DNA of 64,000 nucleotides from Callorhinchus milii (GCF_018977255.1 NW_024704742.1:26786001-26850000); one strand, 5' to 3'. Counted from the stretch's first letter, positions 11,480 through 61,949 are shown. The notes: a model not told the origin generated them from the sequence alone. Numbers and translations: made by a program.

Positions 11480-12930
11480 CGCTTGATCGAGTCTCTGGTG
11501 GCGAGCAGTGTTGCAAGCGAAGACGTCAATCAGCAGTTGCCAGAAATAAATGTACGCTTGTAGCCCAGAGTCCACCAAACACGAGCCCAAACGTAGCCCA
11601 ACCGCACGCCTTGCCCGCAATGGGTAGCGAACGGTCCAATTTAGGCGAGTGCTTTTCGAAACGGTGCAAGAAAAGATCTTCGAGGAGGAGGAGGAGGAGG
11701 AGAAGGAGGGGGGGACGTTTTGCAGGTTTTAATGACTTAGGCACCCGCCCAACGCCGTGTGTTTTCTTTATACACACACACACACACAGTAATAACAACA
11801 CAAAACCCGCCCCAATTGGGCGTGAACCCGCCCAATCGGCGCCCGCGTGAGCTGCGGGGGGCGGGGGAGCTGCCCATCAGCGGGAGCGGCGCGGGGCTCG
11901 CGCGGTGCGGGCGGCGGGCGGGCTCCGGCTCTTGCGTCAGCGCGTCGTTGACGCTGACGCTGACGCTCCGGTCGCCTACGTGCCTTTGCCCTGACGACGG
12001 GGGAGAGGGAAGGGGCGGGTGAGGCAGTCAGGCACAGGCGGTGGTGGTGGGGGGGGAGGGGGTGTGTGTGTGTGTGTGGGGAGGGGGGGGGGGGCTGGGC
12101 TCGCCTCGCGCTGGTGGAGGGCGGCGGCGGACGTTAGCGGCTCCTCGCAGAGGGCGAGGGGAGCGAAGGAGGCGGAGACGGTGGGAAGTGCCGAGGACGA
12201 ACACACACATATACACACACACTCACTCACTCACCACACACACACACACGCAGCGGCCCGGCTTCCCGCCCACAGCCACAGCTCCCCGCCGGCCGGGCTC
12301 CTCCACAGGGTGGGAGGGAGGGAGGGAGGGAGGGAGCTGCCCCTCCAACTGCCGCCGCCGCCGCCGCTCCTCCTCCTCCTGCTGCTGCTGCTGCTCCTGA
12401 GGGGCAAAGAAACGGGTAAATAACCTGAGTGATACTGATGATGGCGGCGCCGGCGGCGGCGGTGGTGGTGGTTGTGAGGCGCGGGGATTGTAACGGCCCC
12501 GGGGTGGGTGGGTGGGGGGGGCCTGGGGTCTGGGGGGGCCTGGGGTGGGGGTGTGGGGGGGCCTGGGGTGGGGGTGGGGGGGCTGGGGGGGGGGGGGGGT
12601 GTGTGGGGGGGGGTTTGACGAGTGACTGAGAGGCCGCGTCTCGGTCGCTGCTTCTGTTCCTGTCGTCGTGCGATGATGTGGTCGCTCGGCGGGTGGTAAC
12701 GGGAAGGGGCCGTTGACGCCGGTCGCTTCGCTTCTTCTTCACGCCTTTCGGCCGGAGAGGGGGGGGTGGTGGTGGGGGGTGGGGGGGCCCTCACCGCCCG
12801 CCGGTTCAGTGGTGCCGGCTGTCGGGAGGGAGGGGGGGGGCGCGGCGTTTGTGTTCAGAGAGGGAGAGGAGGGGAGTCGGTTGGTTCCCTGACCACAGGG
12901 CCCCGCTCGTCGCTGCTGTGATGTGGATTT
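11480..12930 (+). promoter_or_regulatory. KIAA0232: CpG island / probable KIAA0232 promoter
   Basis: Very high CpG and GC content against a CpG-depleted background. GC boxes, CCAAT boxes (palindrome CCCAATTGGG 11811-11820, CCAAT 11832-11836) and CRE half-sites (CGTCA 11935; TGACGC x3 11949-11966). It is the only CpG island upstream of the KIAA0232 coding exons in the window. Confidence 0.75.
12100..12415 (+). other. KIAA0232: Candidate non-coding first exon of KIAA0232 (5' end uncertain)
   Basis: GC-rich leader-like sequence with (GCC)5GC(TCC)4(TGC)5 at 12351-12394, ending at a donor-like CGG|GTAAAT at 12415/12416. Confidence 0.4.
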
Positions 12931-12984
12931 TTTTTTTGGGTGCGACTTGTTTGGTGTTTTGTTTTTTTTAAAAAAATAAATAAA

Positions 12985-15530
12985 CTCTCCCTCCTCCTCT
13001 CCCTCCCTCTCCTCTCCCTCTCCCTCTCTCTCCTCTCCCTCTCCTCCCCCTCCCTCTCCTCTCCCTCTCCTCTCCCCCCCCTCCCTCTCCTCTCCCTCTC
13101 CTCCCCTCCCTCTCCTTCCCTCTTCTCCCCCTCCCTCTTCTCCCCTCCCTCTCCTCCCCCTCCCTCTCCCTCCCCCCTCCCTCTCCCCCCTCCCTCTCCT
13201 CCCCCTCCCTCTCCCCCCTCCCTCTCCTCCCCTCCTCTCCTCCCCCTCCCTCTCCTCTCCCTCTCCTCCCCTCCCTCTCCTTTCCCTCTCTCCCCTCCTC
13301 TCCTTTCCCCTCCTCCCCTCTCCTCTCCTCCCTCCCTCTCCCCCTCCCTCTCCCTCCCCCTCCTCTCCTCCCCCTCCCTCTCCCCCCCTCCCTCTCCCCC
13401 CCTCCCTCTCCTCCCCCTCCCTCTCCTCTCCCCCCCCTCCTCTCCTCTCCCCCCTCCCTCTCCTCTCCCTCCCTCTCCCCCCCTCCCTCTCCTCTCCCTC
13501 CTCTCCCCCCTCCTCTCCTCCCCCTCCCTCTCCTCTCCTCTCTCTCCCCTCCCTCTCCTCTCCTCTCTCCCTCCCTCTCCTCTCCCTCCCTCTCCTCTCC
13601 CCCCCTCCCTCTCCCTCCCTCCCTCTCCTCCCCTCCCTCTCTCTCTCCTCTCTCTCCCTCTCCTCTCTCTCTCCTCTCCCTCTCCTCTCCCTCTCTCCTC
13701 TCCCTCTCACTCTCCTCTCCCTCTCCTCTCCCTCTCTCTCCTCCCTCCCTCTCCCTCTCTATCTCCTCTCCCCCTCTCCCTCTCCTCCTCTCCCTCTCCC
13801 TCCCTCTCCTCTCCCTCTCCCTCTCCTCTCCCTCTCCCTCTCCTCTCCCTCTCCCTCTCCTCTCCCTCTCCTCTCCCTCTCACTCTCCTCTCCCTCTCAC
13901 TCTCCTCCCCCTCACTCTCCTCTCCCTCTCTCCTCTCCCTCTCACTCCACTCCCCTCTCCTCTCCCTCTCCTCTCCCTCTCTCTCCTCCCCCTCCCTCTC
14001 CCTCTCTCTCCTCTCCCCCTCCCTCTCCTCCCTCTCCTCTCCCTCTCCCTCCCTCTCCTCCCCCCCTCCCTCTCCTCTCCCCCCCTCCCTCTCCTCCCCC
14101 CTCCCTCTCCTCTCCTCCCCCTCCCTCTCCTCTCCCTCTCCTCCCCCTCCCTCTCCTCTCCCTCTCCCTCTCCTCTCCCTCTCCTCCCCCTCCCTCTCCT
14201 CTCCCTCTTCTCTCCCTCCCTCTCCCTCTCCCTCTCTCCCCCTCCTTCCCTCCCCCCTTCTTCTTCCCCTCCCCCCCTCTCTCTTGCCCCTCACTCCTCT
14301 TCCTCGCCATCCCTCTTCCACTGTTCCCCTTCCCTCTTCTTTCTCCCCCTCCCTCTCCTTCCCCCCTCCCTCTTCTTCCTCTCCCCTCCCTCTTCTTCCT
14401 ACCCCCTTCCTCTTCTTCACCCCCTCCCTCCCTCTCCCTTTCTCTTCCTCCTCTCCTTCCACCTCCTCCCTCTTCCTCTCTCTCCTTCCTCCCCCTCCCT
14501 CTTTCTCCTCCTCTTCCTCCTTCTCTCTTCTTCCTTCCCTCTTCTTCCTCCTTCCCGCTTCTTCCCTCTTTTTCCTCCTTCCTCCTCCTTCTTCCTCCCT
14601 GATCTCCCTCTTCCACCTTCCTCCCACCACCCTCCCCTTTCCTCTCATACCCCTTCCTTTTCCTCCCATCCTCCCTTCTCCTCCCGCCTCCCTCCTTTCT
14701 CTTCCCCTCTTCTCTTTTCTATTCCTCCCCTCCCTCTTCTTCCTCCCCTCCCTCTCTTACTCTTCCTCTGTTCCCTCTAACCCCATCCTGCTTCCTCTTC
14801 GTCCGCTCCCTCTATCCCCCTCTTCTCCTCCTTCCTCCCCCTCCTTCTTGTTCCTCTCCCCCTATCTTTTCTCCCTCTCCCTCACTCTTTCTCCCTCTTC
14901 CTTCCCTCTTCCTCTCTCCCTGCCGCTCCCCTCCCCCTCCCTCTTTCTCCCTCTTGTAACCTCTTCCTCCTCCCTTCCTCTTCTTCCTCCTCCCTCCCTC
15001 GTCTTCCCCCCTCCCTCCCTCGTCTTCCCCCCTCCCTCCCTCGTCTTCCCCCCTCCCTCCCTCGTCTTCCCCTCCCCCTCCCTCTTTCTCCCTCCCTCTT
15101 TCTCCCTTCCTCTTTCTCCCTCCCTCTCCATCTCTCCCCGTCCCTTCTTCATCTCCCTACCGCTTCCTTATTCCTCCCGCTTCTTCCTCCCGCTTCTTCC
15201 TCCCGCTCTTCTCCCACCCCTCCCCCCTCTTCTACCCCACCCTCTTCTAAACCCCCTCTTCTCCCACCCCTCCTCCCTCTTCCCACTCCTCTTCTAAACC
15301 CCCTCCTCTCCCACCCCTCCTCCCTCTTCCCACTCCTCTTTCCCCTTCCTCCTCTCTCTGCCCCTCCCACTTTCTCCCTCTATCCCCTCCCTCTTCTTTC
15401 CTCTGCGCCTCCCTCTTCTCTCCGCTCCCCCCACTCCCTTCCTCTCTCCCTCACCCCCCCCTTCTTCCTGCCTCTCTCCACCAAGCCCCTCCCTCCACAC
15501 CTCCTTTGGCCTCTGGGATCCCTCCCCCAC
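12985..15530 (+). repeat. About 2.5-kb C/T-rich low-complexity polypyrimidine tract
   Basis: Almost entirely C and T on the + strand. Contains a 21-bp unit x4 (about 14989-15072) and a roughly 50-bp duplication near 15240-15340. Confidence 0.95.
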
Positions 15531-19200: not shown

Positions 19201-19229
19201 TGTGTTAATGTAGTTGGATTGGAAGGAAG

Positions 19230-19900
19230 ACTGTGAATTTCATCACACAGACATTTTCCCAAACGTGGAATCTACTCTTGCAATCAAAGTTTGGGATAGA
19301 TACCATGGGAAGATATTCAAAAACATTGGTAGATAATTTGTGTTTTAGGTTGATATTACTCTGCAGTTACATTAGCTCCATTTTGAAGCGAGCAGTTACA
19401 TTGACCACCTTCATGGTGAAGGGAAATTCAAACAAATCAAATTCTATTTTCTTTGCTTTAAAGTTTTTAAAACATCTGGAGAACTGAGTGTGAAAAAGGC
19501 TGATTTTTGCAGAATCATACCATTCGGAAGACAATAAGGAAATTGGTTGCCAATAGTAGTGAGTGTTAGAAAGTGGCCAAAGTTGCTTTCTTGCAGTTCT
19601 CGCCCACAGTTGAAGCTTCAACTCAAACTCACGCACATGGCTATACAGCAATGTGACAAATTGATTGCACACTTGAAGATACGTTTTCAGAATATTGAAG
19701 TGCTCAATCAAGTACATCAGAAATGCCAGGTTGTAGACCAATATTCATTTGACAACTCAGGTGTATTAGAATGTGAAACATGCAGAAGGCAGATTTATCT
19801 AAGCCTTGAATGTGTAGAAACATTTCAAAATTGTATCACAACTCAACCAGCGAACCTCTGAACTGCACTGAATATAGACTGTTCAGTTCTTTCAGTAGGC
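19230..19900 (-). mobile_element. hAT (Charlie/SPIN/GTF2IRD2-like) transposase relic
   Basis: Minus-strand EVRWLSCDTILKCF (cf. EVRWLSRG), LAFLMYLIEHFNILKTYLQVCNQFVTLLYSHVREFELKLQLW, FSRCFKNFK..FDLFEFPF...MELM. Stops and frameshifts are present. Confidence 0.8.
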
Positions 19901-21419
19901 TGAAATATTCTTGAGCATGGATGAAATTTACGATGTCTATTTTCTTCACTATTTTCCGACAAATATATTAACGAACAATGCATTAGTACGATGTGAATTG
20001 GAACAATGAGTTTTACAAACACAAAGTTTGTAAAAAAATATATATTTGATGTTGTAAATTCTAATATTCAATTATAAATTTAATATTGTAAAATGTTTAG
20101 AGAGAAAGTCAAATACTTCATATAGGAAGCTGTATTGTATTTAATGCAATAAATATATCATTTATATTAAAGAAAAGGCAAATGAACTGCTTCATAAACT
20201 TAACATTTGCCAAATTCAGTGCTATAGATTGCAGATAATTGCCCTGTTCCTATCTGACCCAGTGCCATTATTATATATTTTCCAATGGCTTACCTGGGCT
20301 CAACGGCTTTCCCGCTCAGTGCTGCTAAAGTCATTTTTGATGCATCGTAGGGTTCTAACCCTCATCCTCTAATTCTCATCTATACACTGCCCCTTAATGA
20401 CATTCTTAACAAACATGGAGTTAGCTTTTACGATGTAACAAGAACATAAGCTTGAAATGTATATAAACTCTTGACCTTTGTGTCTAGTACTAAATGAGGT
20501 ATGAGTAAGATGAGTTGGTGTGCATTGTTTTATCACCAAAACAGATTGTGCATAATCTATTGCACAATCATTTTTTTCCCCACAGTTTCTATATTTAATC
20601 ACAGGTATTGCTTTGTAGCCTCTAAACTGATTAAAGTAAAAGGGGTCAATTGAATTCTGAGTGGTGTGATACATTTGAGTGAAAACCTGCAATACAAAGA
20701 TGTAACGTATCCAAATGCTTGAGTCTATAGTACAACAGAGTCGCGATTAAATCTTTGTTAGAGTACTTTTCTTAGGAAGAAGTATTGTACTTAATTATAT
20801 TTCCACCTGTTTGGATGTACAGTAGCCCGGCAAGTTGTACAGAAGAAACCCTTTATAATACACATAATGACATGGTTTAGTTTGTAACGCGATTGAGTTA
20901 TGAACCATGATATTTTCTAAAAATCTAAATTCCTGACATTGCCCAAATCCATTGTTTTACAAACGTGCCGGTGCAATAACAGATGCACCCGAATTAAGTT
21001 GCTGACTTTACGTGCAAATGTGTTAACTTGATTGGTGACTTCACCATGTGGATGCAGATTGCAATTCTATGGCCCCCCCCAACTATACTTATAATATAAT
21101 AATCAGTAGTTTGATTGATCAGTTTCTGCAGATGAGTTTTAACATTATTTTGGCTCTTATATTCACCAACAAAAGTTATATGTATTGCAGTTTTATAGCC
21201 TATATATTATAACCCACACCTTTTAATACGATTATATGGAATTTAATGCAATCTTGCATATTTCAAACCTTTCTAAACATTCCCCTGAAACCAATAATGC
21301 ATATTATTATATAATATATTTGTATTCTTACCTGTTTGAAATATGCTTGTTAACAAAAAAAACTTAATTCGCTCACGAGGGAGAAGGGAATAGGAGGGTC
21401 CGGCTTGTGTGCAAAATCT

Positions 21420-21830
21420 GTCATGGAGTTTGTAGGTCAGATGGCCGTGTGGCATTCCATATTGTCTCATAGTAAACTCTGCACTCCCATCACCCCAGTG
21501 CATGCCAAGCTCCACTGGCTCCCTATTGCAGAACAGATCAATTTCAAGATCCTCACTCTTACGTATAAATCAATTTATGCCGTGGCACCTCCCTACCTCC
21601 CGACATGCTTACGCTACCCTTCTCTACCATCAGCAGCCGTGCTTTCAGCCACTAAGCCCCAAGACTTTGGAATTCCCTGCCTCAATCTTTCTTGCACCCT
21701 GCTTCTCTGACTTCAGATCACATCTGAAAACCTTTTTGACCGCCTCTATGGTCACCTCCTCTTGCCCCCTTGCTCGACATCAAGCTCCACCACGCTTAAG
21801 CGGTTCAAGATGCTATCATACTATGTAATT
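21420..21830 (+). mobile_element. L2 3' fragment
   Basis: TPITPVHAKLHWLPIAEQINFKILTLTYKSIYAVAPPYL. Confidence 0.8.
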
Positions 21831-22099
21831 CTATGTAACAGGAGCAGTTTGTACCTGGTAGCTATGGTCACTTTAAACTGGATCTGCATTTATTGTACCT
21901 GTAATGATAATATTGCAAGAAATACATTTTCGCAACTCAAGATTGGTATATTGCTTTTAAGTAGATGTTGAAATGAGTTATTGTTATATTTAAAACATTA
22001 CCAAAAATTGATTTATTTCATAGGGATGCACATTCAAACTACAATTCAAAATTTGTATTTATGAGCAAAAAATAGTGATACCACTTTTTGCATTATGAA

Positions 22100-22420
22100 A
22101 TAATTATAATAATAATCCTTGCATTTGATACAGCTCTTTTCACGCCGGGAGGACGTCCCAAAGCGCTTCATAGAACACATTGTAAAGTGAATTGGCTGTA
22201 TATTTGTGGGCGAATGCGGCAGCCAATTGCGCACAGCAATGTCCCACAAACAGTCGTAGATTGAAAATGACCAATTTATTATTGTTTTGGGTTTTGGAGG
22301 GATTATTATTAGTCGTGTGGAGTAAGGAAACTTGCCCAAGGTCTCGCCCTCTGCCTGGAATTGAACTCAGGTCTCACTTGCAAAGCGAGTGCTTTTACCA
22401 TTGAGTTCCAGGACTCCACT
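22100..22420 (-). mobile_element. tRNA-derived SINE, near full length
   Basis: Same family as 692-1065, with head, core and (AAT)n tail. Confidence 0.85.
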
Positions 22421-23796
22421 AAGAACAGGTTCAAGCTGTTTTCTTCTCTCAGTACAGTCTGTTCTTGTATAGTAATTTGTCATATTAGTAGCAGTTTGGT
22501 TTTTTATCAAATTTAATAAGAGGCTACATCTTATTTCAAAAATCAGTTGTTCAAAATCACGTACATATTTAAAATGTGGAATTAAGAGGACAAAATATTG
22601 CACAGCATTTAAGTTAACCTGTTTTATTTACTCAGACTGGTTCCCTTTTTTAAATTTATATTTTTGTGTCCATAAACACTACCATTGTTTAATTTGTGAG
22701 TCTGAAGGATAGATACCATTGTGGCGAGCGTAACACGAAAATAGACAATAACTGAACCATATTTTAAGATGGTATAGAAATGTGCAACTAAAACTAATAG
22801 TATAAATTGAAGCATGAAGATTCAAAGTTAGGGTAGACTACAGAGACGTTTGTATAACTGTGCATTGTGATGGCTTATCATTCAGCCAAGGAGTAGTGAC
22901 AACATAGAATCCCAAAAATTAATGTGGAAACATTTTGAAAATTCAGACTTTAGCCACAGGTTGAAGAAAATATGTAAAAGTTACCCGGTAGATGAACTAC
23001 ACTTCTTTCTTACTAAAAACATTTTTCTACTTGTCTGAGTTGGTAGCACTAACCTCTCGGTCAGAACGTGCAAACCACAGGTAAGTTCACCATCCAGGCT
23101 GATACTCCAGCATAATACTGGATGAGCACTGCACCGTCAGAAGTGCCAAGTGCTTTCATCTGAAGCATTAAAAGAGGGGTGCTGTTTGGGTAGATGTTAA
23201 CAATCCCATGGCACTGTAGTATGGTACACTGACTGACAATCCTGCAGATAATTCACTTCCTGGGTACTTGTGGGACCTGCTGTATGTAAAATGGCTGCTT
23301 TGTTTGCCTGCAATTTCAGTCTCCACACGTAACAGAAATTCTCCTACATTTTGATATTATAAGCACTGTATCAAATACAAAGATTAATATTACTCTGTAA
23401 ATTTATTATTTTGGGCGAGGCTATTTGATACAAAGTACATTTATTATTTTGAAAGTTCAATACATAGCTGAGCATCAACACTGTTGTACAGTATTTCTAA
23501 AACATTAGTCAATGAAGTAAGAGTAGTATTTTTAATTTTTTTATTTACTTTGTTATATAACAATGCTTTTTAAATTTACAGACTAAGTTTACAGCTTGTT
23601 AGCTAGCGGTGATTTAGTGATTCTCACCTAAATTATGAATTTGGCAGCATAGCTTATTTAGGATCAAATTTTCTCTAGATTTGTTCTTGGGCTCCAGGTA
23701 AGATGTAGATTCCTGTGAATATGCTCACAATTGCTAACAAGAAAATCCAGTTACTTAAGTTCACCCATCACTCAAAATACTTTGAATTTTGGACTA

Positions 23797-23802
23797 TTTA
23801 TT
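23797..23802 (-). terminator. Candidate polyadenylation signal of the actin-like gene
   Basis: TTTATT on + (AATAAA on -), about 55 nt past the actin-like stop codon. ATTAAA variants lie at 23807-23812 and 23828-23833. Confidence 0.5.
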
Positions 23803-23856
23803 TCAGTTTAATCATAAATGTTGAATGTTTAATCACAACAGTCATATAAATAGTTC

Positions 23857-24975
23857 CTAAAAGCACCTTTTGTTAATGATAGCTGGTCCACATTCTCGGT
23901 AATCATTAGCAGTGACCCACATATCCTTAAACGCTGTCAGACTGGTTAAGATTGAGGCTCCCATCCAAACAGAATAGTTCCTGTTTGGTGGTGCGATGAC
24001 TTTCACTTGTACTCCACTGGGGGTTTGCAATTTGATCTCCTTCAGCAGCCTTTCTTCCAGACCTGGAAAAAGAGTGCAACCACCAGAGAGTAATATGTTG
24101 CTAAATAAATCTCTGCGTAAGACTTTATCAAATTTTAAAATACTATTGCAGATCAGTTTGTGAATTCCAGGTTCTTCTAAACCCATGTTGACTGGTGTAA
24201 AAAGTGATTCTGGAGCTCTAAAGAGCTCCTTTTGGATCATGGTCACATTTCCATCAGGGAGCGTGTACTCCTGTTGAATATCTTCTACGTTCTTCTTATT
24301 TTCTACCTTTGGATCGAGAGCAATATAGCAAAGTGTTTCCTTGATGTTCTCAAATATTTCTTTATGTATTGTAGTTGAAAAGTTGTGTCCATTTTCCAAC
24401 AAGAGTCTCCTTACATGTTCAGTGATATCATTCCCAGCCAATTTAAGTCTTTTAACGGCGTCAGGGAGGTAGTAGCCCTCATAAATGGGTACAGCATCAG
24501 TTATTCCAGAACCACTGTCTAGGACTATTCCTCTAGTGCGTCCCGATGCATAGAGTGCCAAAGTTCCAGGGATAGCTATGTACATAGCAGGTACGTTAAA
24601 ACCCTCAAACATGATCTCGGCCATCTTTTCTCTATTACGGAAAGGAGTCAGCGGAGCTGCAGTCATCAAAACTGGTCTTTCTTTTGATTTGATATGAAGC
24701 TCAAATGAATAAACGTGTCTCCAAAGCTTCTCCATATCCTCCCAGGAGGTTATTATGCCACGTTCAATTGGGTACCTTAAGGACAAGAATTCTCTTTTAT
24801 CTTGAGCTTTTTTCCCAAAATAATATTCTGCGTGGCCAGCCTCTCGCGTACATCCTTTGGCTTTGGAGGTACCCACAACGGATGGTATGACTGAGGCTGG
24901 GAAGCTGTCTCCAACTAACCCAGATTTGCAGAACCCAGAGCCGCTATCTATGATTACAGTGGTAATGTCCATCAT
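23857..24975 (-). CDS. Intronless actin-like / actin-related protein (ARP-T-like), 372 aa
   Basis: Uninterrupted ORF colinear with actin: VIIDSGSGFCKSG, YPIERGII, LYASGRT.GIVLDSG, VPIYEGY, YTLPDG, NILLSGG.TLFPG, SVWMGASIL, C-terminal KRCF. The second ATG has a strong context (ATGATGG). Confidence 0.93.
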   Translation of the reverse strand: MMDITTVIIDSGSGFCKSGLVGDSFPASVIPSVVGTSKAKGCTREAGHAEYYFGKKAQDKREFLSLRYPIERGIITSWEDMEKLWRHVYSFELHIKSKERPVLMTAAPLTPFRNREKMAEIMFEGFNVPAMYIAIPGTLALYASGRTRGIVLDSGSGITDAVPIYEGYYLPDAVKRLKLAGNDITEHVRRLLLENGHNFSTTIHKEIFENIKETLCYIALDPKVENKKNVEDIQQEYTLPDGNVTMIQKELFRAPESLFTPVNMGLEEPGIHKLICNSILKFDKVLRRDLFSNILLSGGCTLFPGLEERLLKEIKLQTPSGVQVKVIAPPNRNYSVWMGASILTSLTAFKDMWVTANDYRECGPAIINKRCF

Positions 24976-26359
24976 TTGATAATTTCAGGCAATCTTGATA
25001 CCTTGAGTGAAGAATGTCTAAATATTTGACCAATAATGTACACAGTAGACCACAAAACCTCCTCTGTACATGCAAATACACTGTCATTGCAACTCCAGAT
25101 GAATACTTAATGCAGTACAGTTGGTTGCAATCAAATGACACAACAATTGGTATCTATGTGATGAGTGAAAAGAGCCACTTCATAAACCTGACCCTTCGTT
25201 GACCTATGACTCAATGGCTAAATGCGCAGGAACAAATGAGCAGTTTGTGTACGTTCGTGTCTATTGACCCACCATACTAAGAAAAAGGTTTCATGTGTTT
25301 TTTTAAGGGAGGTGGAATGCCTTGTGAGATAGTGAGGAAGCTTCTGCTAATATCATGAGATGTTGAGTCGATCTCCAGTTAAATATAAAATTAGCCCACA
25401 GATGGAAACTATTTAACATAATTGATTAGAAACGAGTTCTTTTGCTTTATGGACCTGGGTTTGAATCAAGCCGGGACTAATAGAATAAAGGAACATTCTT
25501 AGCTATAGCTACAAATGGAAACCAACTGGGCATCCTGAAATCAGTTTGGTTGGTTATGTAATAGGAATGTTTGGTGTTTCATGCCATCTGTAACTTTTCT
25601 GCTCTCAATGTAGTGGTTTACAGTAAACCTCAATACATCATATCAGTTTGGACCACACATTTAATATGACAAGCAAAGTATGAGTTGTGTTACACTGGCA
25701 TAAGTGGTATAATTTATGACTTGTGTAAAGTTATGTATAAGTCAGATTTTATATAACTAACACACAACAGATACAGTATACGTGGATTGTACAATATTTA
25801 CTAGTGAATCAAGGCAAGGTTTCTGTACCGTGTTTAGCCCATGCATATTAAAGTTATGGTAGCTCATTGTTTCTATATACAGGACTGCACGGTACTGTTC
25901 TGTGACAAAAACATATACTGTACGATGAATGGCACAACCAAACGTGTTTCAAAACAGAACTGTTTTATTAGGCTATAAATTCTTACAAAGATTGTTTAAC
26001 ATGGAGCAAGGTGGTCCAACCTTTTGGCGACTGAGGAACGGATGCCCTGTTTGAGAATCATGAAATGCTGCCCTTACTTCCCTCTCTCTTTCTCTCTCTC
26101 TCTCTCTCTCGCTCTCTCAATGACTCTCTCACCCTCTCTCCCTTCCCCTCTTGTGTTTCTCTCTTCCCTCTCCCTCAGTCACTCTCTGTCCTCTCTCCCT
26201 CCCTCTCTCTCTTTCTCAATCAGCCGCGCGTTCGTGTGCAGGAACAGCTGTCAGAAATTGAGCCGCGCAGTTGTTTGAGAAAGAGAGAGAGAGGTCCTCC
26301 CAACCGGCAACTCTCGGCGCTGCCCTGAGAGGACAGTGCGCAAGCGAGAGAGGCAGTGG

Positions 26360-26990
26360 GCGGCCTGAAGTTTTTCTCTTTCTTCTCTTGCACGATGATG
26401 TTGATGTTGGCCCCCAGAAGGAAAAGCGTGGTCTCCTTGGAGATGAACTGGCTCCAAGGTGATGTTTGGCGACGGAATGTTGGAATGGAGCCCACTCTCT
26501 GTGGTGGTCTCAGTAGTCCACTATCTAAGCCATGTGGGTCCACAGGTCTCCAGAGCACTGCTGATGACAGCACAGGCAGACTTGGAAGAGCAGACCAGTC
26601 ATTGGGGTAGGGACTCTACCCGCTCAGCTCCCACTAACCCTGGAAGCGAAGGCCCTAATAGTTAGGGTGGTCCTAGCTGGATAAGGGATGGGAAAGCTTG
26701 CCAGATAGTGCTCTTCATTGCAAGCCATGTGGTTTTACCTAGTTAGACTCCAGCAGTAGCCCACGCACTCTGAGGTCCCCAAACCTTGATTCTTGCCAAC
26801 CTTTGCCTAATACTTTGCAGAATTAGGTAAGCAGTTTGCTGTTCTCCATGGAAAGAGTGCGCATTCCAACAAACATCTCTGGTATTTCCATGTGTAGCTG
26901 GGAAACATGGAATTCTGTTTGGTTTGGATACTCTTAAGCAAGATGAAAGGTTTCTGCATTTGCCAGACATTCGGCTGACCNAAAAAAACC
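26360..26990 (-). repeat. Unclassified interspersed repeat (copy B)
   Basis: Reverse-complement match to copy A. Shares the terminus GCTGACC(A)nCC with the copies ending at 54172 and 63398. Confidence 0.7.
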
Positions 26991-27202
26991 ACTCAAAACC
27001 TATGTGTGTGTATATATATATATTTTCCAACAGGGGTTACTGGATAATTATTAGTAGTGAGAACTGTTTGATTTTTTTTCACTTTTCTCACACCAGAGAG
27101 AACCTGGGATTAATGATTTATATGACTTTTATTATACTGTGGAAATATTATTAATATTAATGATCCTTGCATTTGATATTGTGCCTTATCCTGTTGTCGA
27201 GA

Positions 27203-28720
27203 CAACAACAACAACAACAAGATTCCATTTATAAAGCGCCTTTCACGTCAGGAGGACGTCCCAAGGCGCTGCACAGTTGGGTCATGACCCGAGCAGGGGG
27301 GAAATGGTCAGGGTGAGGGGAGGGAAGGGAGGGAGCGAGGAGGGGGGAAATGGTCAGGGTGAGGGGAGGGAAGGGAGGGAGCGAGGAGGGGGAAGAGAGT
27401 CGAGAGGGGAGCTGAAGGCACGGTCAAAGAGAAAGGTTTTGAGACCGGCCTTGAAGGAGGAAAGGGAGGAAGCAAGGCGAAGGCACTGGGGGATAGAGTT
27501 CCAGAGCCTGGGGGCTGAGAGGCTGAAGGCCCGACCACCGATGGTAGGGCGGTTGGGGCGGGGGACGTGGAGCAGACCGGAGCCAGAGGAACGGAGGGTA
27601 CGGGCAGGTAGGTAGGGGGATAGTAGGTTGGAGAGGTAGGAGGGAGCAAGGCCGTGAATGGCCTTGTAGGTGAGGATGAGGATCTTGAAATCAATCCTCT
27701 GGGGGATGGGGAGCCAGTGGAGGCGAGCGAGGGTGGGAGTGATGTGGTCCCGAAGCCTGGTGCGGGACAGTACACGAGCTGCAGAGTTCTGAATGACCTG
27801 CAGCTTGTGGAGGGAGGTGGCGGGAAGGCCGGCGAGGAGAGAGTTCCCATAGTCCAGCCTTGAGGTGACAAAGGCGTGGACCAGGGTTTCAGCAGCGTGA
27901 GGGGTGAGGTAGTGCCGTAGTCTGGCGATGTTCCGGAGGTGATGGAAGGCGGTGCCAGTTGTGGTGCGGATGTGAGGGAGAAAGGACAGCTCAGGGTCGA
28001 ACAAAACGCCGAGGTTCCTGACTGGCTTTGAGAGGTGGAGAGTGCAGCCTTGGATGCTGATGGTGTCAGCGCCTGAGGTGCGGAGGCGCTGACGTGAGCC
28101 AATCAGGAGGGCCTCGGTTTTTCGCACGTTGAGCTGAAGAAAGTTGTCTCTCGTCCAGGACTCGATGTCGGACAGGCAGCTGTCAGGACATCGGTGGTCG
28201 TGGAGTTGAGAGTAGAGGAGGAAAGGTAGAGTTGGGTGTCATCCGCATACATGTGGAAGTTAACCCATGTCTGCGGATGATGTCACCGAGGGGGAGCATA
28301 TAGAGGGTGAAGAGGAGGGGACCAAGGACAGAGCCCTGAGGGACACCACATGAGACAGTGCGGGGGTGGAGGAGAAGCCATTCGTCGAGACGAAATGAAG
28401 ACGGTGAGAAAGGTACGACCTAAACCATTCAAGGACAGTGCCTTGAAGGTTGAGGTGGGAGGACAAGCGGTGGAGTAGGATAGCGTGGTCGACCGTATCG
28501 AATGCTGCCGATAGGTCGAGGAGGACGAGGAGACAGAGGGAGCCCTGGTCACAGATGGTCAGGATATCATTGGTGACCTTGACCAGGGCAGTTTCTGTGC
28601 TATGGGCAGCACGGAAACCTGACTGAAGGGGTTCGAAAAGAGAATGGGTGGAAAGGAAAGAGCGCAGTTGGGAGGCGACAACTCTTTCCAAGACCTTGGA
28701 GAGAAAGGGGAGGTTGGAGA
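27203..28720 (-). mobile_element. Young 5'-truncated L2 LINE inserted in a SINE
   Basis: Long ORF pieces (FEPLQSGFRAAHSTETALVKVTNDIL, LLDLSAAFDTVDH, HMYADD, RNLGVLFDPELSF, LHWLPI, GGRAFS), retained CpGs, (AAC)n tail at 27203-27220 and a roughly 46-bp tandem duplication near its 3' end. Confidence 0.95.
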
Positions 28721-29214
28721 CGGCTCAAAGCTCTACACAGGACGGCTCTAACCTTCACAGGTTTGTGAGACATTGGTTGTCATGTTTGCCCACAAAATAC
28801 ACAAGTGATGTGACTCTTGTATTTTGTGGGAAAACATGACAACCAATTTGCGCACAGCAGTGTCCCACAAACAACCTATAGTTGGTGACCAATTTTATTT
28901 GGTATCTGTTGGCCAAGACAACGGCCAGGATGAACTCTCTTTTCAAATAGTGCCATTGGAATTCTTAATGTCCACCTGGACAGACAGGAAGGAACTCGCT
29001 TTAACGTCTCATCCAAAAGACAGCACTTTAATTGAGAGCTTAATAATGATTCAAATATTTTGTCAATGCTTTTATAGTAGTTAATTCTATCCTGAGCTGC
29101 CTTGTTTCAGAAGTGCATGAGTATAAAATTCAATCATATGTTGATTTATAATAATTTATAATAATCCCTGCATTTGATATAGCACCTTATCATGTCGCTG
29201 AGATGTCGCTGAGG

Positions 29215-29623
29215 AGGGCCATTCACGGCCTTGCTCCCTCCTACCTCTCCGACCTACTGTCCCCCTACCTACCTGCCCGTACCCTCCGTTCCTCTGGCTC
29301 CGGTCTGATCCACATCCCCCGCCCGAACCGCCCTACCATTGGTGGCCGGGCCTTCAGCCTCTCAGCCCCGAGGCTCTGGAACTCCATCCCCCAGTGCCTT
29401 CGCCGCCTCCTCCCTTTCCTCCTTCAAGGCCGGTCTCAAGACCTTTCTCTTTAACCGTGCCTTCAGCTCCCCTTTCGACTCTCTACCCCCTACTCGCTCC
29501 CTCCCTTCCCTCCCCTCACCCTGACCATTTCCCCCTGCTCGGGTCCTGACCCAACTGTACAGCGCCTTGGGACGTCCTCCCGACGTGAAGGGCGCTCTAT
29601 AAATGGAATCTTGTTGTTGTTGT
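29215..29623 (+). mobile_element. Young L2 3' fragment inserted in a SINE
   Basis: Near-identical inverted match to 27205-27665. Ends in AAATGGAATC(TTG)n. Confidence 0.93.
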
Positions 29624-29899
29624 CTCAAAGCGCTTCACTGTAAAATGGATTGATTGTGTACTTTGTGGGCGAAAAACGGCAGCAGGTCCCACAAACAGCC
29701 ATGGAATGAGTGACCAATTTTATTTGAGAGATTCGTTGGTCAGGACAGTGGGGAGAAACACCCTTCTCTTTTCTAACAGTTCCACGGGATCTTCAACTGT
29801 AATCCAGGAAATGCAATGTATGTAGGGATTTAGCAGCAAAATAACACACTTCTGTTCCTAGACTTGTGGATAGTGTGTCAGGTTGCAAAGAAAGGCAAA

Positions 29900-30440
29900 T
29901 TTGCCTCATGCCTCAAATGCCTTCTTTGCCATTCTCCCCATCTCCACCATACACAGGACCCAGCTGATCCAAAACTCCGCCGCGGCATACTTAACCGCAC
30001 TAAACTCCGTACCCCCATCAAACCAGTTCCACTCGCTCCCTATCACCAAATGGATCGATTTCAAGATCCTCACACTTGTTTTCAAATCCCTTCATGCACC
30101 TCCCTGCCTCTTTGACCTGCTTATACCCACAACCTGCTGCCTCCACTCGACTAGCTCCGGCCTTCTGCATGTCCCTCATGCCATGCCGTCCCTTCCACCA
30201 CTGGTGGCCGTGCTTTCAGCCACTACACCCCAAAACTCTGGAACACTCTTCCTCTATCCCTCCGCCTTGCCCCTTCCTTCCCCATCTTCAGGTTGTGTCT
30301 GAAGACCTTCCCATTCGACCATGCCTACGGTCACCTCCACCTACCCCTGGCTCTGCGTCATGCTCCACTACTGTCAAGGCTCTGGGATGCTGCCCTACAT
30401 GAGGGATGCAATGTAAATGCAAATTGTTGCTGTTGTTGGC
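29900..30440 (+). mobile_element. L2 3' fragment (older)
   Basis: QLIQNSAA...IDFKILTLVFKSLH...LKTFPFD. Confidence 0.8.
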
Positions 30441-30655
30441 TGTTTGTGAGACATTGCTACATGCAAATTAGGTGCGGTGTTAATCTACAAATCCTATGAA
30501 GCACTTTGAAACGTCTTCCTGGTGTGAAGGATGCTTAATCAAATGGAACTATTATTATTATTTAATCATTTTATCTATGTGAGTGGTTTCGAATTTTGGT
30601 GTATTCAACCTCATTATTGAAAATAACACATACAAACCCTAATTGTATTTTTCAG

Positions 30656-30926
30656 GCTCTTCCACAAGCTGTCCTCCTACAAGGTCACCATGAAAGGCAT
30701 CTGAAAGTTGTGCAAACAAGGCGATTGTTTTGCCAGTTGAGACGATTTCCTCCATCTGTCATGCCAGCCGAATGAAATTTCCATCTATTGACTATTTCAG
30801 CCAATATAAATGCTGGTCCAAGCGGTTGATCTTCTATTACAACTGGAGTCAGATAACCTCCAGATAATAGTTCAATACCAGTTGGAAAAATGCTGCGAGA
30901 TTTAAGAATGCCCGCTACTTAGCTTC
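30656..30926 (+). other. KIAA0232: KIAA0232 5'UTR part of the first coding exon, with multiple uORFs
   Basis: Acceptor CCCTAATTGTATTTTTCAG| at 30655 with a branch-point-like CTAAT. ATGs at 30690, 30761, 30772, 30810, 30890 and 30908. Confidence 0.65.
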
Positions 30927-31157
30927 ATGCATCCAACTTGTGCAGTTGTTGTGGAAGGCCCACCATCTGAGGGATCCCCAAGCTCTTACCAAGGCCCCAC
31001 ATCTGCTCCTGAAATGTCTCTCCTTCATGCTTTAGGTCCGGTGCAGACCTGGCTAGGACAAGAGTTGGAGAAATGTGGGATTGATGCCATGATCTACACT
31101 CGATATGTCCTAAGTCTTCTGCTTCATGACAGTTATGACTACGACTTACAGGAACAG
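30927..31157 (+). CDS. KIAA0232: KIAA0232 coding exon 1 (77 codons)
   Basis: MHPTCAVVVEG...EMSLLHALGPVQTWLGQELEKCGIDAMIYTRYVLSLLLHDSYDYDLQEQ matches the KIAA0232 N-terminus as recalled. Donor CAG|GTATGC, phase 0. Confidence 0.93.
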
Positions 31158-31299
31158 GTATGCAAAAATCATTTTGTCTATGCATACATGTTAAATCTTA
31201 AATTACAATTTTTATTTATGTTGGGATCGAAGAACATATCATGACTCACAACTGTAGTAATTATAAAGGAATCATGGGGTTCCAACCTCATAACAGCAG

Positions 31300-31790
31300 T
31301 TTTGGCAAGAGTTGATGTAGTCAAGTCTGGATGTGATGATGGTTTCTGTGGCCCAAGGGGAAAGGTAGTGGCAGATGCGAGCAATGTTGCGGAGGTGGGG
31401 GAAAGCTAAACAGGTCAAGGTGGGGTTTAAAGGACAGTTGAGAGTCAAAACAAGAAACCTGTTTTGCACTAGCTTTGTGAAGTGTGCATCCATGTAAATT
31501 GATGCTGTCAGCACCAGAGGTGAGAAGGCACTGATAGGAGCCAAGCAAGAGAACCTCTGTCTTGTTAAAATTCAAATACTGAAAGCTAACTCTCATCCAG
31601 GACTTAATGTCTGACAGTTAATCAATCAAAACAGCAATAGTCCTGGAATCGAGGGTGGAGACAGAGAGAGAGTTGGGTGTCGTCTGCATACATGTGGGAG
31701 TTAACCCCATGCCTGCAGATGACATTGCTGAGCGGGAGCATGTAGATATTAAAGAGGAGAGGATAGAATCCCGAGGAATGCCGTACATGT
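31300..31790 (-). mobile_element. L2 fragment
   Basis: PLLFNIYMLPL...[33 protein letters not shown]. Confidence 0.85.
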
Positions 31791-34566: not shown

Positions 34567-35020
34567 AACATTTTCAAATATCAATTTTACCTATATTGTA
34601 TTGTCATGTAAAACATCATCTGCATCTTAAAATGGCAACATCACCTTAATCTTTAAGCATTCAATTAGTTCTCTTATGGTTTTGAATTTGAGGGACACCC
34701 TTGATTCAGTAAGAAAATGCAGGACATTTTAGAAGCAGGTAAAAGTATTTTTGACCCAATAAACTTGTTCTCTATCTCATCTTCCCATTTGTGCGATGTT
34801 CCTTCATCACTTCATTCTCCAGAAACACATCCAGTTGTGTCCTGAACCCATTTATATTGCGTGCTTTCGATGGCCTTCCCTGATATCTTATCGATTCAGT
34901 ATATTGTTCATGCCCAACAAACCATTAATTCTGTCCAAATTTAGTGGGGGTTTTTTTGCACTTTAAACATGGCATGGTGGTTTCTCTGTGTACTAATTAC
35001 ATCACTCTTCTGTCAATCAG

Positions 35021-35161
35021 GAAAATGACATCTTGGGCTGGGAGAAAGGAACCAGCAAGAAATGGGGAAAAGGAAAGAAGAAGTGCTCAGATCTGAGTCT
35101 TGAGGAAATGAAGAAACAGGCTGCTGTTCAGTGTCTGCGTTCTGCCTCTGATGAATTTAAG
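35021..35161 (+). CDS. KIAA0232: KIAA0232 coding exon 2 (47 codons)
   Basis: AATCAG|GAAAATGAC... encodes ENDILGWEKGTSKKWGKGKKKCSDLSLEEMKKQAAVQCLRSASDEFK. Donor AAG|GTGTGT, phase 0. Not in the ORF track. Confidence 0.9.
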
Positions 35162-56998: not shown

Positions 56999-57905
56999 GT
57001 AAGTAACATATTTTGCTTTGAGTACTGGTTCTTCAGGTGCAGGTTTATCACTTTTAAGACTGATAAAGAAGGGGCAACACAGAGGATTGAGTCGGGGAGT
57101 TCTAGAGGGTTGTGATTTAGTGGCTGAAGGCACTGTTGCCGATGCTAGAGCGGAGTGGGCAGAAACGTGCAGAAGGCCTGAGCTAGCTGAGCATAGAGAT
57201 CGGGTAGAGGAGTTTGTGTGAGCAGGTTGAAGATTAAATCCAAGATTCTTGTTCTCACATTTAATTCTCCACAGCTTTGCCCCACCCTGGAGTTTTTCCG
57301 ACCTGCCCCATCCCTACACAATCAACACCCACTTCTTTGACTTGCATCTTTAATTGTGCTTTAGGTTATCTTTCTCCTACCCTCCACGCCCACCCTCTTC
57401 AGTTCCGCCACGCCACTCTTTCCATTGCTTGGGTGTCCAATCAGTTGTGTAAAGCACTTTGAGACATCCTCCCAATTTGAAAGGTGATCAATAAATGTAA
57501 ATTGTATTTTATTTATACAGCGGGTAATGTTAGAATCAGGCATTTTCAAGAAAAGCGCAACTGGAAATCCACAAGACTGAAAGATTCATATTTTTGGTGT
57601 AAACCTTCATCTGTCTTATTTAAAAGCAAATGTTTACTTTTTATTGGCAGACTAAATAAATTGACAGAAATTTAAGCCCTTTCGTGACCTGAATATATGT
57701 CTGATTGCTATGTAGACCTTTGTAGATGCCTGTATTATTTGTCTCTCAGGAGAAAATCAATAGGATGGCTGAAATGTTAAAAACGAGGAAATCCATTCTG
57801 TTATCATTTGAAATGTAATAAACAATTCAGTAAGTAATTTAAAACCTATGAATAAATATGTCCTCCTTTGTGGATCATTGCATTTGTTTTCACTTGTTTT
57901 TGTAG

Positions 57906-60900
57906 GTATTATGAAGCATTTCCACCCCTTTCTGAGAAGCCAATCTGTCTGCAGGAAATAATGACCGTGTGGAACAAGGCCAAAGCTTGTTCTTCATCTT
58001 CATCTGCTGCTCCACAAACAAGCACTGACACATCCTCTCCAAAAGATTGCAACAGTGAAGGTGAGGGGACAAGGGAACGAACAAACGAGGCTTCTGTTAC
58101 AACAAGCAGCAGTTACACATTCAGGAGAAGTAAAAAGGAGAAAGAAAACAGGCACAACAACAGCTTGCCAGAAGAGAAACCTGCTGCAGGAAAAAAGCAG
58201 ATCAGGCACAGGTCAGAAGGAAAGATGCGTCCTCGTTCCTGGTCTTCTGGCTCCAGTGAAGCAGGCTCCAGCTCAAGTGGGAACCAATATGAGTTGAAAG
58301 CTCCCACGAAAGCTGTTAAAATAAGACACAAGATGCGAGAAAATGCTCGGAACAATAAGGGGCGAAATGGACAAGTCAAGCTGTCTTTCAGATCGGTGGA
58401 AAAAGATGATCGAAGAAGTACCTGTGGGAGCAGCAGCAGTGGGCCTACCAAACAGCTGTGCAAAAGAGGAAAACGGCATCCGAAAGAAACAAGGAGGAAA
58501 GCAAACCGTGGTACAAGAGATCTGGGCAGTGAAAGTAAAAGGGAGCAGGAATTTAGAGAAGAACCGTTGTGGTACACTGAACCAATCATTGAGTACTTGT
58601 TGCCTCTGAGTAGAAAGAGCAAGCTGGAAACTGCATACCGCAATAGTGTGGCTGCAAATGCTGGTGAATCTTCCTATTTGGAAGAAATTTCAGAGACAAT
58701 GCAGGGTCTTTGTATTAGTAACAATAATTTCCAAACATACCTCGCAGCAGGTACTTTCGTCGATGGTCACTTTGTTGAAATGCCTGCATTAATAGATGAG
58801 GCTAATGACCTCACTGGGACCTCAAGCTGTTCTAATCCTAAGAACAGTGACATTTTAGATGCTACGCATCTACCAGAATTTACTCACTTCTATGAAGTAG
58901 ATATTCATCAATCCATATTGGATCCTAGTGCCTCAAATTCATTGCAAGGAGAGAGTCGAATTTTAAGCATGATTCGGCGGAAAAGTACAGAGCAAACTGA
59001 TTTTGAGGCAGATGGTTGTATAGTGTTAGATGAACTACAGATGACGAGGGAAAGTGCAATATGGACAGATTCACATGCTTCTCTTTGTGCAGAAGAATTG
59101 TTCCTACAAGATCTTGCAAATACAGCTCAGTTTTGGGAGTGCTCCAGTTCTGATGAAGCAGAAGGGGAAAGCTTTGCTGGGGATTCTCCCATTACGCTTT
59201 CTCCTATTCTGGATAATACAGTGTGTGATGCAAGCAGCAGTACTGGCAATCAAGAAGAACACTTTTCAGAAGCCAATGAAGGGTCTGGTTTAAACTCCAC
59301 TTGTTTCTCTCTGTTTGAAGTGCAATATGATAACTCTACTTCACCTTTCTGTTTTGATGGACTTGACCTGGGAAATCAGAATAGTGATATTGGAAGCTGG
59401 GTTGATTTTCCAGGGAAAACGCAGTCTCGTTTGCTTATATGGACCAAAAATAGTGCCTTTGATGAAAATGACCACTGTTCTAACCTTTCAACACGAACCT
59501 GTAGCCCATGGTCACATTCTGAAGAAACTCGTTCTGATAATGAAACCACCTTTGGTATTCAGTTTGAGGAGTCCACTAAGTTTAATGCAGACGAGATTGA
59601 CTGCATAGTCCCTGGCATTTCGTCCAGCCTTTTAAATGAAGACCTCTTAGACTTATTACAAGAGGATGCTCGTTCACGGACAAATGGAGCTTTACGTGAT
59701 ATACCAAGCCTGACTTTCAAACAGAAATCTAAATTGGAGTCAGTATGTGGAATTCAGTTGGAAGAAGAAGAAAATAAGGAATATGAATTGACTGCAGAAA
59801 CTTTCACAGATCAGATATCCAGTCATACAGAAGGCTATGGCTCAGGAGTTATAAAAGACATTTGGACAGCCATAGCAGAACACGATGCTGTAACACTAGA
59901 GGTAGAACGATCGGTCGAAGATTTATTTTCCAGTGAGGTGAATGGCTGTCAGTGCTGCTGTTTGGATATGGCAACAAAACAGGACCTGCTTCAAGAGTCT
60001 CATGAAAAGGCTGTGCAAAGGTCTGAGTATCATTTGTGGGAATGCCAGAAAGAAAACCTGGAAGCTCAAGCTGCTGCAACTGGTGAACTTGCAGAGCTAG
60101 AAGTGGGTGATTACACTGCACCATCAAAACCTTGGGATATTGGCACTGACAAAGAAAGTGCTTTTATTCTTGGTGGAGTCTATGGGGAACTGAAAACGTT
60201 CGACAATTGTGGTGACTGGGGAGTAATTCCACAGGACCCTGCAAAAGGTACTTTATTGCAGTGTGCAGCTTCTGATGTTGTGACCATAGCAGGCACAGAT
60301 GTTTTCATGACACCAGGTAGCAACTTTGCTCCTGGTCACAGACCATTGTGGAGATCTTGTGCTTCATTCGGACAGTGCGACCAGACAAGAAAAGGAGAGG
60401 ACAGATTAAACACTGAATTCTCGCTTATCTTCCATGAAGACTTATTGGGGAATTGCAGTAATTATCAGACTCAAGAGCCCAGTGTTGAGTATTCATTTTC
60501 CTCCTTTGATCTGAGCAATCCTTTTTCACAAGTACTTCATGTGGAGTGCTCATTTGAGCCAGAAAGACTTGCATCATTTAGTCCAAGTTTTAAGCCCAAA
60601 TCTATACTGTGTTCAGATTCAGAAAGTGAAGCCTTCCACCCTAAAATATATAGTATTGACAAAACGCAGTATCGAGCTATACGAATCTCGCCGCGAACAC
60701 ATTTCCGACCTATTTCTGCCTCTGAGTTGTCACCAGGTGGGGGAAGCGAGTCTGAATTTGAGTCCGAAAAAGAAGAAGTTGGCATTCCTATCCTTTCCCA
60801 GACTGATTTGTTTGAGGATCCTCAGGCAGATTTAAAGCCACTAGAAGAAGATGCTGAACGAGAAGGACATTACTATGGAAAGTCGGAGCTGGAATCAGGG

Positions 60901-61179
60901 AAATTCCTGCCGAGATTAAAAAAGGCTGGGATGGAAAAGAGTGCTCAAACTTCACTGGATTCTCATGAAGGATCTGGTGGTCTTTTACAGACAGAACAGC
61001 AATGCCCAGAGTGTCATTTACAGGCATCAATGGGATGCGCCAATGTGAATAGTTGTGAAACAGATTTAAAAGTAAAGGTACCATGTGATAAGCTGGAAGA
61101 GTTCCAGAATCGTACAATAAGCAGGGACCTTTCTGGGTTCAACGAGGGAGCTTATGTCATGGCACCATCACTGCAAGAG
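57906..61179 (+). CDS. KIAA0232: KIAA0232 coding exon 5 (large, 3274 nt); gene continues beyond it
   Basis: TTTTTGTAG|GTATTAT... encodes (M)YYEAFPPLSEKPICLQEIMTVWNK...RPRSWSSGSSEAGSSSSGNQ...YRAIRISPRTHFRPISASELSP...APSLQE. Donor GAG|GTGAGT. Confidence 0.95.
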
Positions 61180-61949
61180 GTGAGTTCTGCAATTGCAGTC
61201 TATGTATGTTTACAATTTGTGATTCCAGATTGCCTCTAAATTGTTACAAATACCATTTTCTGTGTGATAGAAATGATTTGCAATTTTGCAATCTGTATTA
61301 ATTACAATTACATTTTTCGCAGTTAACTTTATTGTAGGCCCAGCTGGACAATTTTAGGAATTCCCTTAAAATTAAAGTTTCAATCTTAAATTGGCGCAAT
61401 AATAATTTGATACAGTGCCTTTCACGCCGGGGAACATCTAAAAGCGCTTTACAGGATTCACTATAAAGTACACTACAAAGGATAGTGATGGTATTTTGTA
61501 GGTGAATGCAACAGACAATTTGGGCACAGTAATATCCCACAAACAGCCATGAAGTGAATGTCCATTTTTTTTATTTGGGTATTGTTGGCCAGGACCTAGG
61601 GAGAATCTTCCTTTTTTTCCAAATAGTGCCTTGAGATCTTTAACGCTAAGTAACAAAGCTGCAAGACAGCACCTCCAGGAATGTAGCACACCCCCAGCAC
61701 TGTACTAGAGTGTAAGCATAGACCATAGATTCCAAGTCCCGATGTAGGCTTGAACTCACAACCTTCTGACTCAGAGGCAAGGGTGCTGCCAACTGAGCCA
61801 GACTCCAGTGGCAAAAGCCAGGATTTATATAGCTCCCCTACCTTGCGTAAGGGTCGCAATATAAATGCAAGTTGTTGTTGTTTGCCTGAGTAATGTTCTA
61901 TGCTATAAACATTCTGTGTGTCCTATGAATCCATTCTATTCATTGTATC

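Follow-up and report, generated by a model that had tools for sequence, protein, structure and literature searches.

The window studied here, a stretch of 64,000 nucleotides from Callorhinchus milii (C1:26786001-26850000), carries on its minus strand an uninterrupted reading frame for an actin-like protein and, on the plus strand, exons of another gene at higher coordinates. This arrangement raises the question of whether the frame is a copy of an actin that happens to be open or a functional member of one of the divergent actin families, which family that would be, what its product might do, and whether it resides in an intron of its neighbor. The actin-like gene comprises the following features, counted from the first nucleotide of the window.

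23857..24975, minus strand: single-exon coding sequence of an Arp-T-type actin-related protein (ORF, Pfam Actin, NCBI match)
23797..23802, minus strand: AATAAA polyadenylation signal, 55 nt past the stop codon
24730..24831, minus strand: 102-nt segment removed in the NCBI isoform X2 model (deletion matching)

The ORF runs from ATG to TAG through 372 codons with no interruption. It lies in a stop-to-stop frame of 375 amino acids and is the sole ORF of at least 80 amino acids in the stretch 23000-26000. The Pfam Actin family (PF00022) spans residues 3-372, corresponding to profile positions 3-410 of 410, at an E value of 1.7e-112; the score of 376.4 bits, compared with a curated cut-off of 27, assigns the protein to the family. 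The top matches among solved structures are conventional actins (E ∼1e-131) in a nearly gap-free alignment. The ORF scan and the end-to-end Pfam match therefore bear out the full-length actin-fold ORF that an earlier note on this DNA had described as free of stops, frameshifts, and introns. The AATAAA that the same note had placed ∼55 nt downstream is also present (TTTATT on the plus strand), and a further AATAAA is found 312 nt past the stop codon.

The gene is less novel than that note had supposed, because the automatic annotation of NCBI and UniProt already includes it together with shark and ray orthologues. The ORF corresponds to a protein that NCBI modeled automatically and named “actin-like isoform X2 [Callorhinchus milii],” with which it is identical over 338/338 residues (48 N-terminal and 290 C-terminal). 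The model differs solely by an internal deletion of 34 residues (residues 49-82), and the only nucleotide deletion reproducing this protein is a 102-nt cut at 24831..24730 with GC..AG ends. Contigs from the RNA runs described below pass through this segment unspliced. The deletion in the model removes a part of subdomain 2 that includes Arg-73, and for several of the shark orthologues, too, there are “isoform X2” models that are shorter (310-312 amino acids). A literature search combining KIAA0232 with actin turned up no nested actin gene among the titles listed.

Among the matches listed, the proteins closest to the query are full-length sequences from Heterodontus (80% identity), Pristiophorus (78%), Scyliorhinus (76%), and Rhinoraja (74%). 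A second group of cartilaginous-fish proteins follows at 62-69%, and bony-vertebrate proteins are at most 62% identical, again among the matches listed. The nearest 50%-identity representative, a turtle “actin-85C-like” protein (54%), added no closer relatives. A search of the animal's own 991.5-Mb assembly for actin-like genes found nine full-length divergent members, the query among them, each consisting of one open frame without stops. The identities of the other eight to the query are as follows.

L002, on C13: 69%
L003, on C24: 60%
L004, on C11: 54%, ACTRT3 orthologue
L005 and L008, tandem pair on C21: 43-44%
L006 and L009, tandem pair on C1:85.55-85.56 Mb: 38-40%
L007, on C157: 40%

The C11 copy shows 72-74% identity to proteins named ACTRT3 from turtle, tuatara, alligator, lizard, frogs, salamander, and coelacanth. 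The two tandem pairs look like genes of the ACTL7A/B and ACTL9 types, a naming that we presume. In one member of each pair, L009 (G000:C1:85553691-85557791) and L008 (G000:C21:5663465-5667535), the actin-like part ends a longer open frame of 722 and 538 amino acids, respectively. The upstream parts consist of low-complexity repeats rich in Pro, Ala, Gln, Ser, and Thr, which may represent either extended disordered N-terminal regions or nothing more than GC-rich sequence that happens to be open.

To place the query among these families, we calculated a tree in IQ-TREE (LG+C20+F+G4 PMSF) from rows hand-picked among the matches listed (best 120 per list). A first set of 66 rows was reduced by 10 redundant or long-branched sequences and enlarged by 17, giving 73 rows; mammalian ACTRT2 proteins from Dama, Orycteropus, and Galemys were brought in by an amphibian “ACTRT2-like” query. 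In the 73-row tree, the query and four elasmobranch proteins form one clade with a support of 100/99. The chimaera sequence lies outside the ray and the sharks, which is the branching that orthologues should show. The sister of this clade is a 7-row clade (100/99) that includes the C13 copy and likewise has cartilaginous-fish members only. A node with 100/100 support, on a long stem of 0.37, unites the two, and all 12 rows belong to cartilaginous fishes. Since the chimaera lineage has both paralogues, as do sharks and rays, the duplication that separated them is older than the chimaera–shark split.

This 12-row clade is nested in a 50-row clade (100/99) that includes the three mammalian ACTRT2 proteins named above. 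The larger clade also holds the C24 copy with a manta protein, proteins from coelacanth, sturgeon, and gar, the tetrapod “actin-85C-like/actin-1-like” groups, and ACTRT2 proper from amphibians, reptiles, and mammals. Its sister is the ACTRT3 clade (14 rows, 100/99), outside of which the query falls, and the remaining five copies of the own genome form a separate clade at 100/100. Together with a dN/dS of ∼0.10 (see below), the tree upholds the earlier assignment of the ORF to an ARP-T-like divergent actin, as opposed to a conventional actin or a dead copy. The suspected restriction to one lineage likewise stands, in the sampled sense that 12/12 rows of the query clade and its sister are cartilaginous-fish proteins.

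Among the tetrapods, two Arp-T-type genes with successive locus tags are present both in the frog Ascaphus (FKM82_013655/FKM82_013656) and in the newt Pleurodeles (NDU88_008183/NDU88_008184). The members of these pairs split among different tetrapod subclades, suggesting that the tandem arrangement is old in tetrapods.

To compare individual residues, we aligned the two cartilaginous-fish clades (12 rows) to conventional actin, with the aspartate of the DNGSG motif as residue 11. Positions 13 (Gly), 14 (Ser), 15 (Gly), 18 (Lys), 154 (Asp), 156 (Gly), 158 (Gly), 213 (Lys), 214 (Glu), 301 (Gly), and 302 (Gly) are kept in all 12 rows, and Asp-11 is retained in 11/12. By contrast, the same 12 rows have replaced Gln-137 by proline, His-161 by aspartate, His-73 by arginine, Glu-107 by alanine or threonine, and Asp-157 by phenylalanine, serine, tyrosine, or histidine; K336N is found in 11/12. 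Gln-137 and His-161 are both retained in 27/27 rows from conventional actins (4), ACTRT3 (11), the C24-copy group (3), and the tetrapod “actin-1-like” group (9). The four mammalian ACTRT2 rows retain Gln-137 and carry H73R, H161C, and K336W (4/4).

The N terminus of the query lacks acidic residues, and its D-loop and hydrophobic plug are divergent. Identity to conventional actin by subdomain is 54% (subdomain 1), 41% (subdomain 2), 58% (subdomain 3), and 40% (subdomain 4). An AlphaFold2 model from a 38-row alignment reproduces the actin-like order of secondary structure elements at moderate confidence (mean pLDDT 71.8, pTM 0.62).

In actin, as known from the structural literature, Gln-137 and His-161 place the attacking water for ATP hydrolysis. 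The pair that marks a competent ATPase is replaced by Pro-137 and Asp-161 in 12/12 rows. Since the phosphate-binding loops are kept while these two residues are exchanged, the protein can be read as a nucleotide-binding, hydrolysis-poor actin-fold subunit that, judging from its residues, would probably not treadmill.

The residues and the tree also bear on whether these genes are simply ACTRT2 (Arp-T2) under another automatic name, so that the query would be one of two cartilaginous-fish ACTRT2 co-orthologues and not part of a separate lineage. The common 50-row clade with mammalian ACTRT2 (100/99) is compatible with this view, and H73R is shared with mammalian ACTRT2 and with 8/10 reptile and amphibian rows. 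The ACTRT2-proper clade has changes at positions 161, 336, and 157 too. If the 12-row clade and the 14 ACTRT2-proper rows are constrained to one group, the log-likelihood drops by only 4.4 units (AU test, p 0.302). However, forcing the 12-row clade together with the C24-copy clade is equally unrejected (AU test, p 0.162), and the free 73-row tree keeps the query clade and ACTRT2 proper apart. Moreover, Q137P occurs in 0/14 ACTRT2-proper rows, and residue 161 is aspartate here versus cysteine, histidine, glutamine, or glutamate there. As the AU tests reject neither attachment inside the 50-row clade, “cartilaginous-fish-specific” could mean ACTRT2 co-orthology. We regard co-orthology as unlikely, though as a view to be reckoned with, and prefer a pair of paralogues of the cartilaginous fishes within the Arp-T1/T2 branch.

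The gene on the opposite strand was characterized from its reading frames and from sequencing runs. Its features, and the CpG island upstream of it, are as follows.

11501..13000, plus strand: CpG island, presumed host promoter and first non-coding exon (GC, CpG o/e)
30656..31159, plus strand: host exon with ATG at 31015 (DUF4603, contigs X1-X3)
35018..35161, plus strand: next host exon (GT..AG joint, X1-X3)
57856..61239, plus strand: open frame with the large host coding exon, given as frame and not exon ends (DUF4603)

The frame at 30906-31244 matches positions 1-55 of the Pfam profile DUF4603 (PF15376) with an E value of 1e-34, and the frame at 57856-61239 (1127 amino acids) covers positions 154-1240 of 1297 with 1704 bits. 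We take DUF4603 to be the KIAA0232 family. The first host coding exon has the acceptor ...tttttcag/G at 30656 and the donor CAG/gtatgc at 31159. Contigs of the sequencing runs X1, X2, X3, and X5 were placed on 15500-35499, a stretch that begins past a tandem array of ∼1.5 kb located within 11.8-15.5 kb. A 673-nt contig found in X1, X2, and X3 alike connects 30654-31154 with 35018-35161 through GT..AG ends, skipping 3863 nt. The joint 31154 to 35018 is absent from X5, a run of DNA-like size, which indicates that X1-X3 contain spliced RNA. No run containing sampled words of this DNA is recorded as RNA, and five runs from 2011 and 2013 under the same species label (X9-X13) contain next to none of those words, which does not count as evidence.

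The same contig carries 28 extra letters 5′ of 30654 that are placed nowhere in 15500-35499, a stretch in which junctions with sides of only 18-26 letters were recovered. The exon at 30656 therefore has an upstream partner exon, most simply located beyond 15.5 kb. There, the CpG island at 11501-13000 (GC 0.61-0.72, CpG o/e 0.67-1.12) is the strongest in the window and the only strong non-repeat island upstream of the host coding exon; the host is presumably transcribed from this island, which would also hold its first non-coding exon. The ORF lies between this island and the first host coding exon, as the earlier note had stated. A scan of the plus strand at 11-15.5 kb for AGGTRAG and AGGT yielded no AGGTRAG and no convincing donor for host exon 1, the best-looking one, near 12415, ending in GG.

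It was also claimed that the actin-like gene is nested antisense within the KIAA0232 transcription unit. The opposite strand supports this claim, as does the splicing of the 30656 exon to a partner further upstream that found no place in 15.5-30.65 kb. Host exon 1 itself was not located, so we grade the nesting as probable: the actin-like gene quite likely lies antisense in intron 1 of the DUF4603 host.

Alternatively, the gene could be real and unnested, with the host starting between the actin-like gene and the 30656 exon, or with the two genes being mere neighbors. Besides the unlocated exon 1, this view could draw on CpG-rich windows at 27.5-29.75 kb and on the fact that the island at 11.5-13 kb has no consensus AG/GTRAG donor. 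Yet the CpG-rich windows overlap very-high-copy reverse-transcriptase fragments, and the 28 letters before the 30656 acceptor are not placed in 15500-30653 even though joint sides of 18-26 letters were reported. We therefore consider an unnested gene rather improbable and retain antisense nesting as the preferred arrangement.

Several repeats accompany the two genes. Directly downstream of the CpG island, in the presumed host intron 1, ∼2.5 kb of the plus strand (12985-15464) is almost pure pyrimidine and built from CTCTCC-type units of period 6, 15, and 17, with a GC skew of -1.0 and an AT skew of -0.96 at 13-14 kb. This tract is a candidate former of triplex or H-DNA. Inside the island, 12501-12614 (plus strand) contains a G-run and a GGGGTGGG-type repeat of ∼110 nt, which may fold into G-quadruplexes close to the presumed promoter of the host, and AC/CA dinucleotide runs occupy 12201-12249. 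A repeat of very high copy number occupies 21503-22836 and 32175-32841, where the contigs of each of the four runs add up to a depth of 10^4-10^5; frequent jumps of contigs between ∼22130 and ∼32336 indicate one repeat family at both places. The surrounding old elements are broken, as had been noted: short, interrupted frames with PF00078 reverse-transcriptase fragments occur at 28260-28724 and at 49541-50449. The frame at 27354-28238 matched no Pfam family.

Is the actin-like gene under constraint? Comparison with the C13 paralogue (Nei-Gojobori) gives a pS of 0.695 and a pN of 0.174, corresponding to a dN/dS of ∼0.10 with dS near saturation. Among the differences listed (33 more over the 20-kb stretch), the three variants within the ORF, at 24532, 24586, and 24595, are all third-position and synonymous. 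Purifying selection on the ORF is thus indicated. A dN/dS of ∼0.10, the synonymous variants listed, and the 74-80% identity to shark and ray proteins together rule out a decaying copy.

The proposal of a retrogene is weakened. No A-run was found where a poly(A) remnant was sought after the AATAAA, and all nine divergent actins of the own genome are single open frames, so that any retroposition must be older than the family. If retroposition made the family, it did so before the divergence of jawed vertebrates, and the gene was not retrocopied from a present-day actin. A single exon in the presumed intron of another gene with retroelement fragments around it could suggest a processed retrocopy or pseudogene, open by chance or freshly inserted, but the identity of only ∼50-53% to conventional actins, the orthologues across sharks and rays that branch as the species do, the low dN/dS and synonymous ORF variants, and the missing poly(A) tract and nine equally uninterrupted relatives make this barely credible. 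A processed retrogene of a conventional actin was rejected as a candidate, since a close intron-bearing parent, a poly(A) tract, and lineage-specific presence were not found. We conclude that the gene is a real, constrained, and automatically annotated member of the Arp-T family that is unstudied in the literature found.

Contigs from the RNA-containing runs cover the ORF as follows.

23476..25753, strand not readable from contigs: contig extent over the actin-like gene (X1 23476-25753, X2 23788-25385)

Runs X1 and X2 each contribute one genome-collinear contig over the ORF, with depths of 20.7 and 6.7, respectively. No joint is listed inside the ORF, through which the contigs run collinearly, as expected for a single coding exon. 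Contigs from neighboring unique intron sequence have depths of 6.3-15.6 in X1 and 4.5-9.0 in X2; there is no clear enrichment over the ORF, and contig depth cannot rank the parts of a gene. Being collinear and reaching well past the ORF, the contigs may stem from host pre-mRNA or from library DNA. Run X3 provides two short pieces with depths of 3.4-3.5, both within the ORF, and several flanking unique bins have a depth of 0, which is at best a faint hint of expression. The low end of the X2 contig at 23788 lies 9 nt past the AATAAA, a weak hint of a poly(A) site given that contigs cannot show RNA ends.

A likely role can be derived from the better-known relatives. According to a recent preprint, mouse Actrt2 is intronless, expressed in testis, and evolves with an omega of 0.079, and mammalian ACTRT2 is localized to the perinuclear theca (bioRxiv 10.64898/2026.06.05.730397). 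For ARPM1/ACTRT3, an omega of 0.23 is given in another preprint (bioRxiv 10.1101/2025.03.27.645694). ACTRT2, ACTRT3, ACTL7A, ACTL7B, and ACTL9 are described, in a further study, as a mutually stabilizing testis Arp complex of the subacrosomal perinuclear theca (PMC13752377). By analogy, membership in the Arp-T family makes a cytoskeletal subunit of spermatids and the sperm head the likeliest role.

Taken together, we favor, with a probability of roughly 0.6, a functional gene of the Arp-T1/T2 branch that is one of two cartilaginous-fish paralogues, encodes a hydrolysis-poor subunit of the sperm head, and is probably nested antisense. The gene would be a single-coding-exon member of the ACTRT1/ACTRT2 group whose product retains both the fold of actin and its phosphate-binding loops, with the ATP-splitting residues swapped (Q137P and H161D) and His-73, Glu-107, Asp-157, Lys-336, the D-loop, and the hydrophobic plug altered as well. 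As predicted from these exchanges, nucleotide may be bound and poorly hydrolyzed, so that the protein would act as a stable structural or scaffold subunit without actin-like treadmilling. Its setting, by analogy with the mammalian proteins, would be the cytoskeleton of the spermatid and sperm head, in a complex with other testis Arps, relatives of which are also encoded in this genome. The gene itself would probably be housed by the first intron of the DUF4603 (KIAA0232-type) gene, in antisense orientation.

A bolder version of this reading is tentative and, in our estimate, possible rather than probable. It holds that the cartilaginous fishes possess a private Arp-T pair, older than the chimaera–shark split, in which the change of Gln-137 and His-161 to proline and aspartate created a permanently nucleotide-locked sperm-head subunit, and that the antisense position of one member in intron 1 of the DUF4603/KIAA0232 gene could let host transcription gate its expression.

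The consequences are modest and do not overturn current views; the gene is already in automatic annotation. The mammalian set of testis Arps (ACTRT2/3 and, as we presume, ACTL7/9-like genes), of interest for the assembly of the sperm head and for male fertility, was seemingly already present in the common ancestor of jawed vertebrates, and cartilaginous fishes added and retained their own two-member Arp-T branch. The fixed Q137P and H161D exchanges offer a natural experiment on the actin fold without its hydrolysis residues, and the gene's probable position, antisense within a host that is widely expressed, provides a simple case for host and guest transcription.

Known systems close to the query include the testis Arps ACTRT2 and ACTRT1 of the perinuclear theca, with which it shares a clade (100/99), a similar length, and a single coding exon. 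H73R is found in both the query and ACTRT2, which also both depart from actin at positions 161 and 336. In contrast, the query is only 49-50% identical to three placental mammalian ACTRT2 rows and combines Q137P with H161D, whereas ACTRT2 keeps Gln-137 and has Cys-161. The query is also placed on a separate long stem with cartilaginous-fish members only.

ACTRT3 (ARPM1) belongs to the sister family, and the copy that this animal has on C11 likewise consists of one open frame, with 54% identity to the query. Unlike the query, which falls outside its clade (100/99), ACTRT3 retains His-73, Gln-137, and His-161 in 11/11 rows scored and Asp-157 in 10/11. Conventional actin shares with the query the fold, the length, the glycines of the phosphate loops, Asp-11, Lys-18, Asp-154, Lys-213, Glu-214, and the C-terminal ...RCF. 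The differences are an identity of only ∼50-53%, the lack of an acidic N terminus in the query, the replacement of Gln-137 and His-161, and the divergent D-loop and plug.

For the genomic arrangement, a parallel is ACTL10, a single-exon divergent actin gene in an intron of NECAB3. ACTL10 has another host and presumably belongs to another branch. Its example makes a nested arrangement unsurprising for a member of a family of actin relatives.
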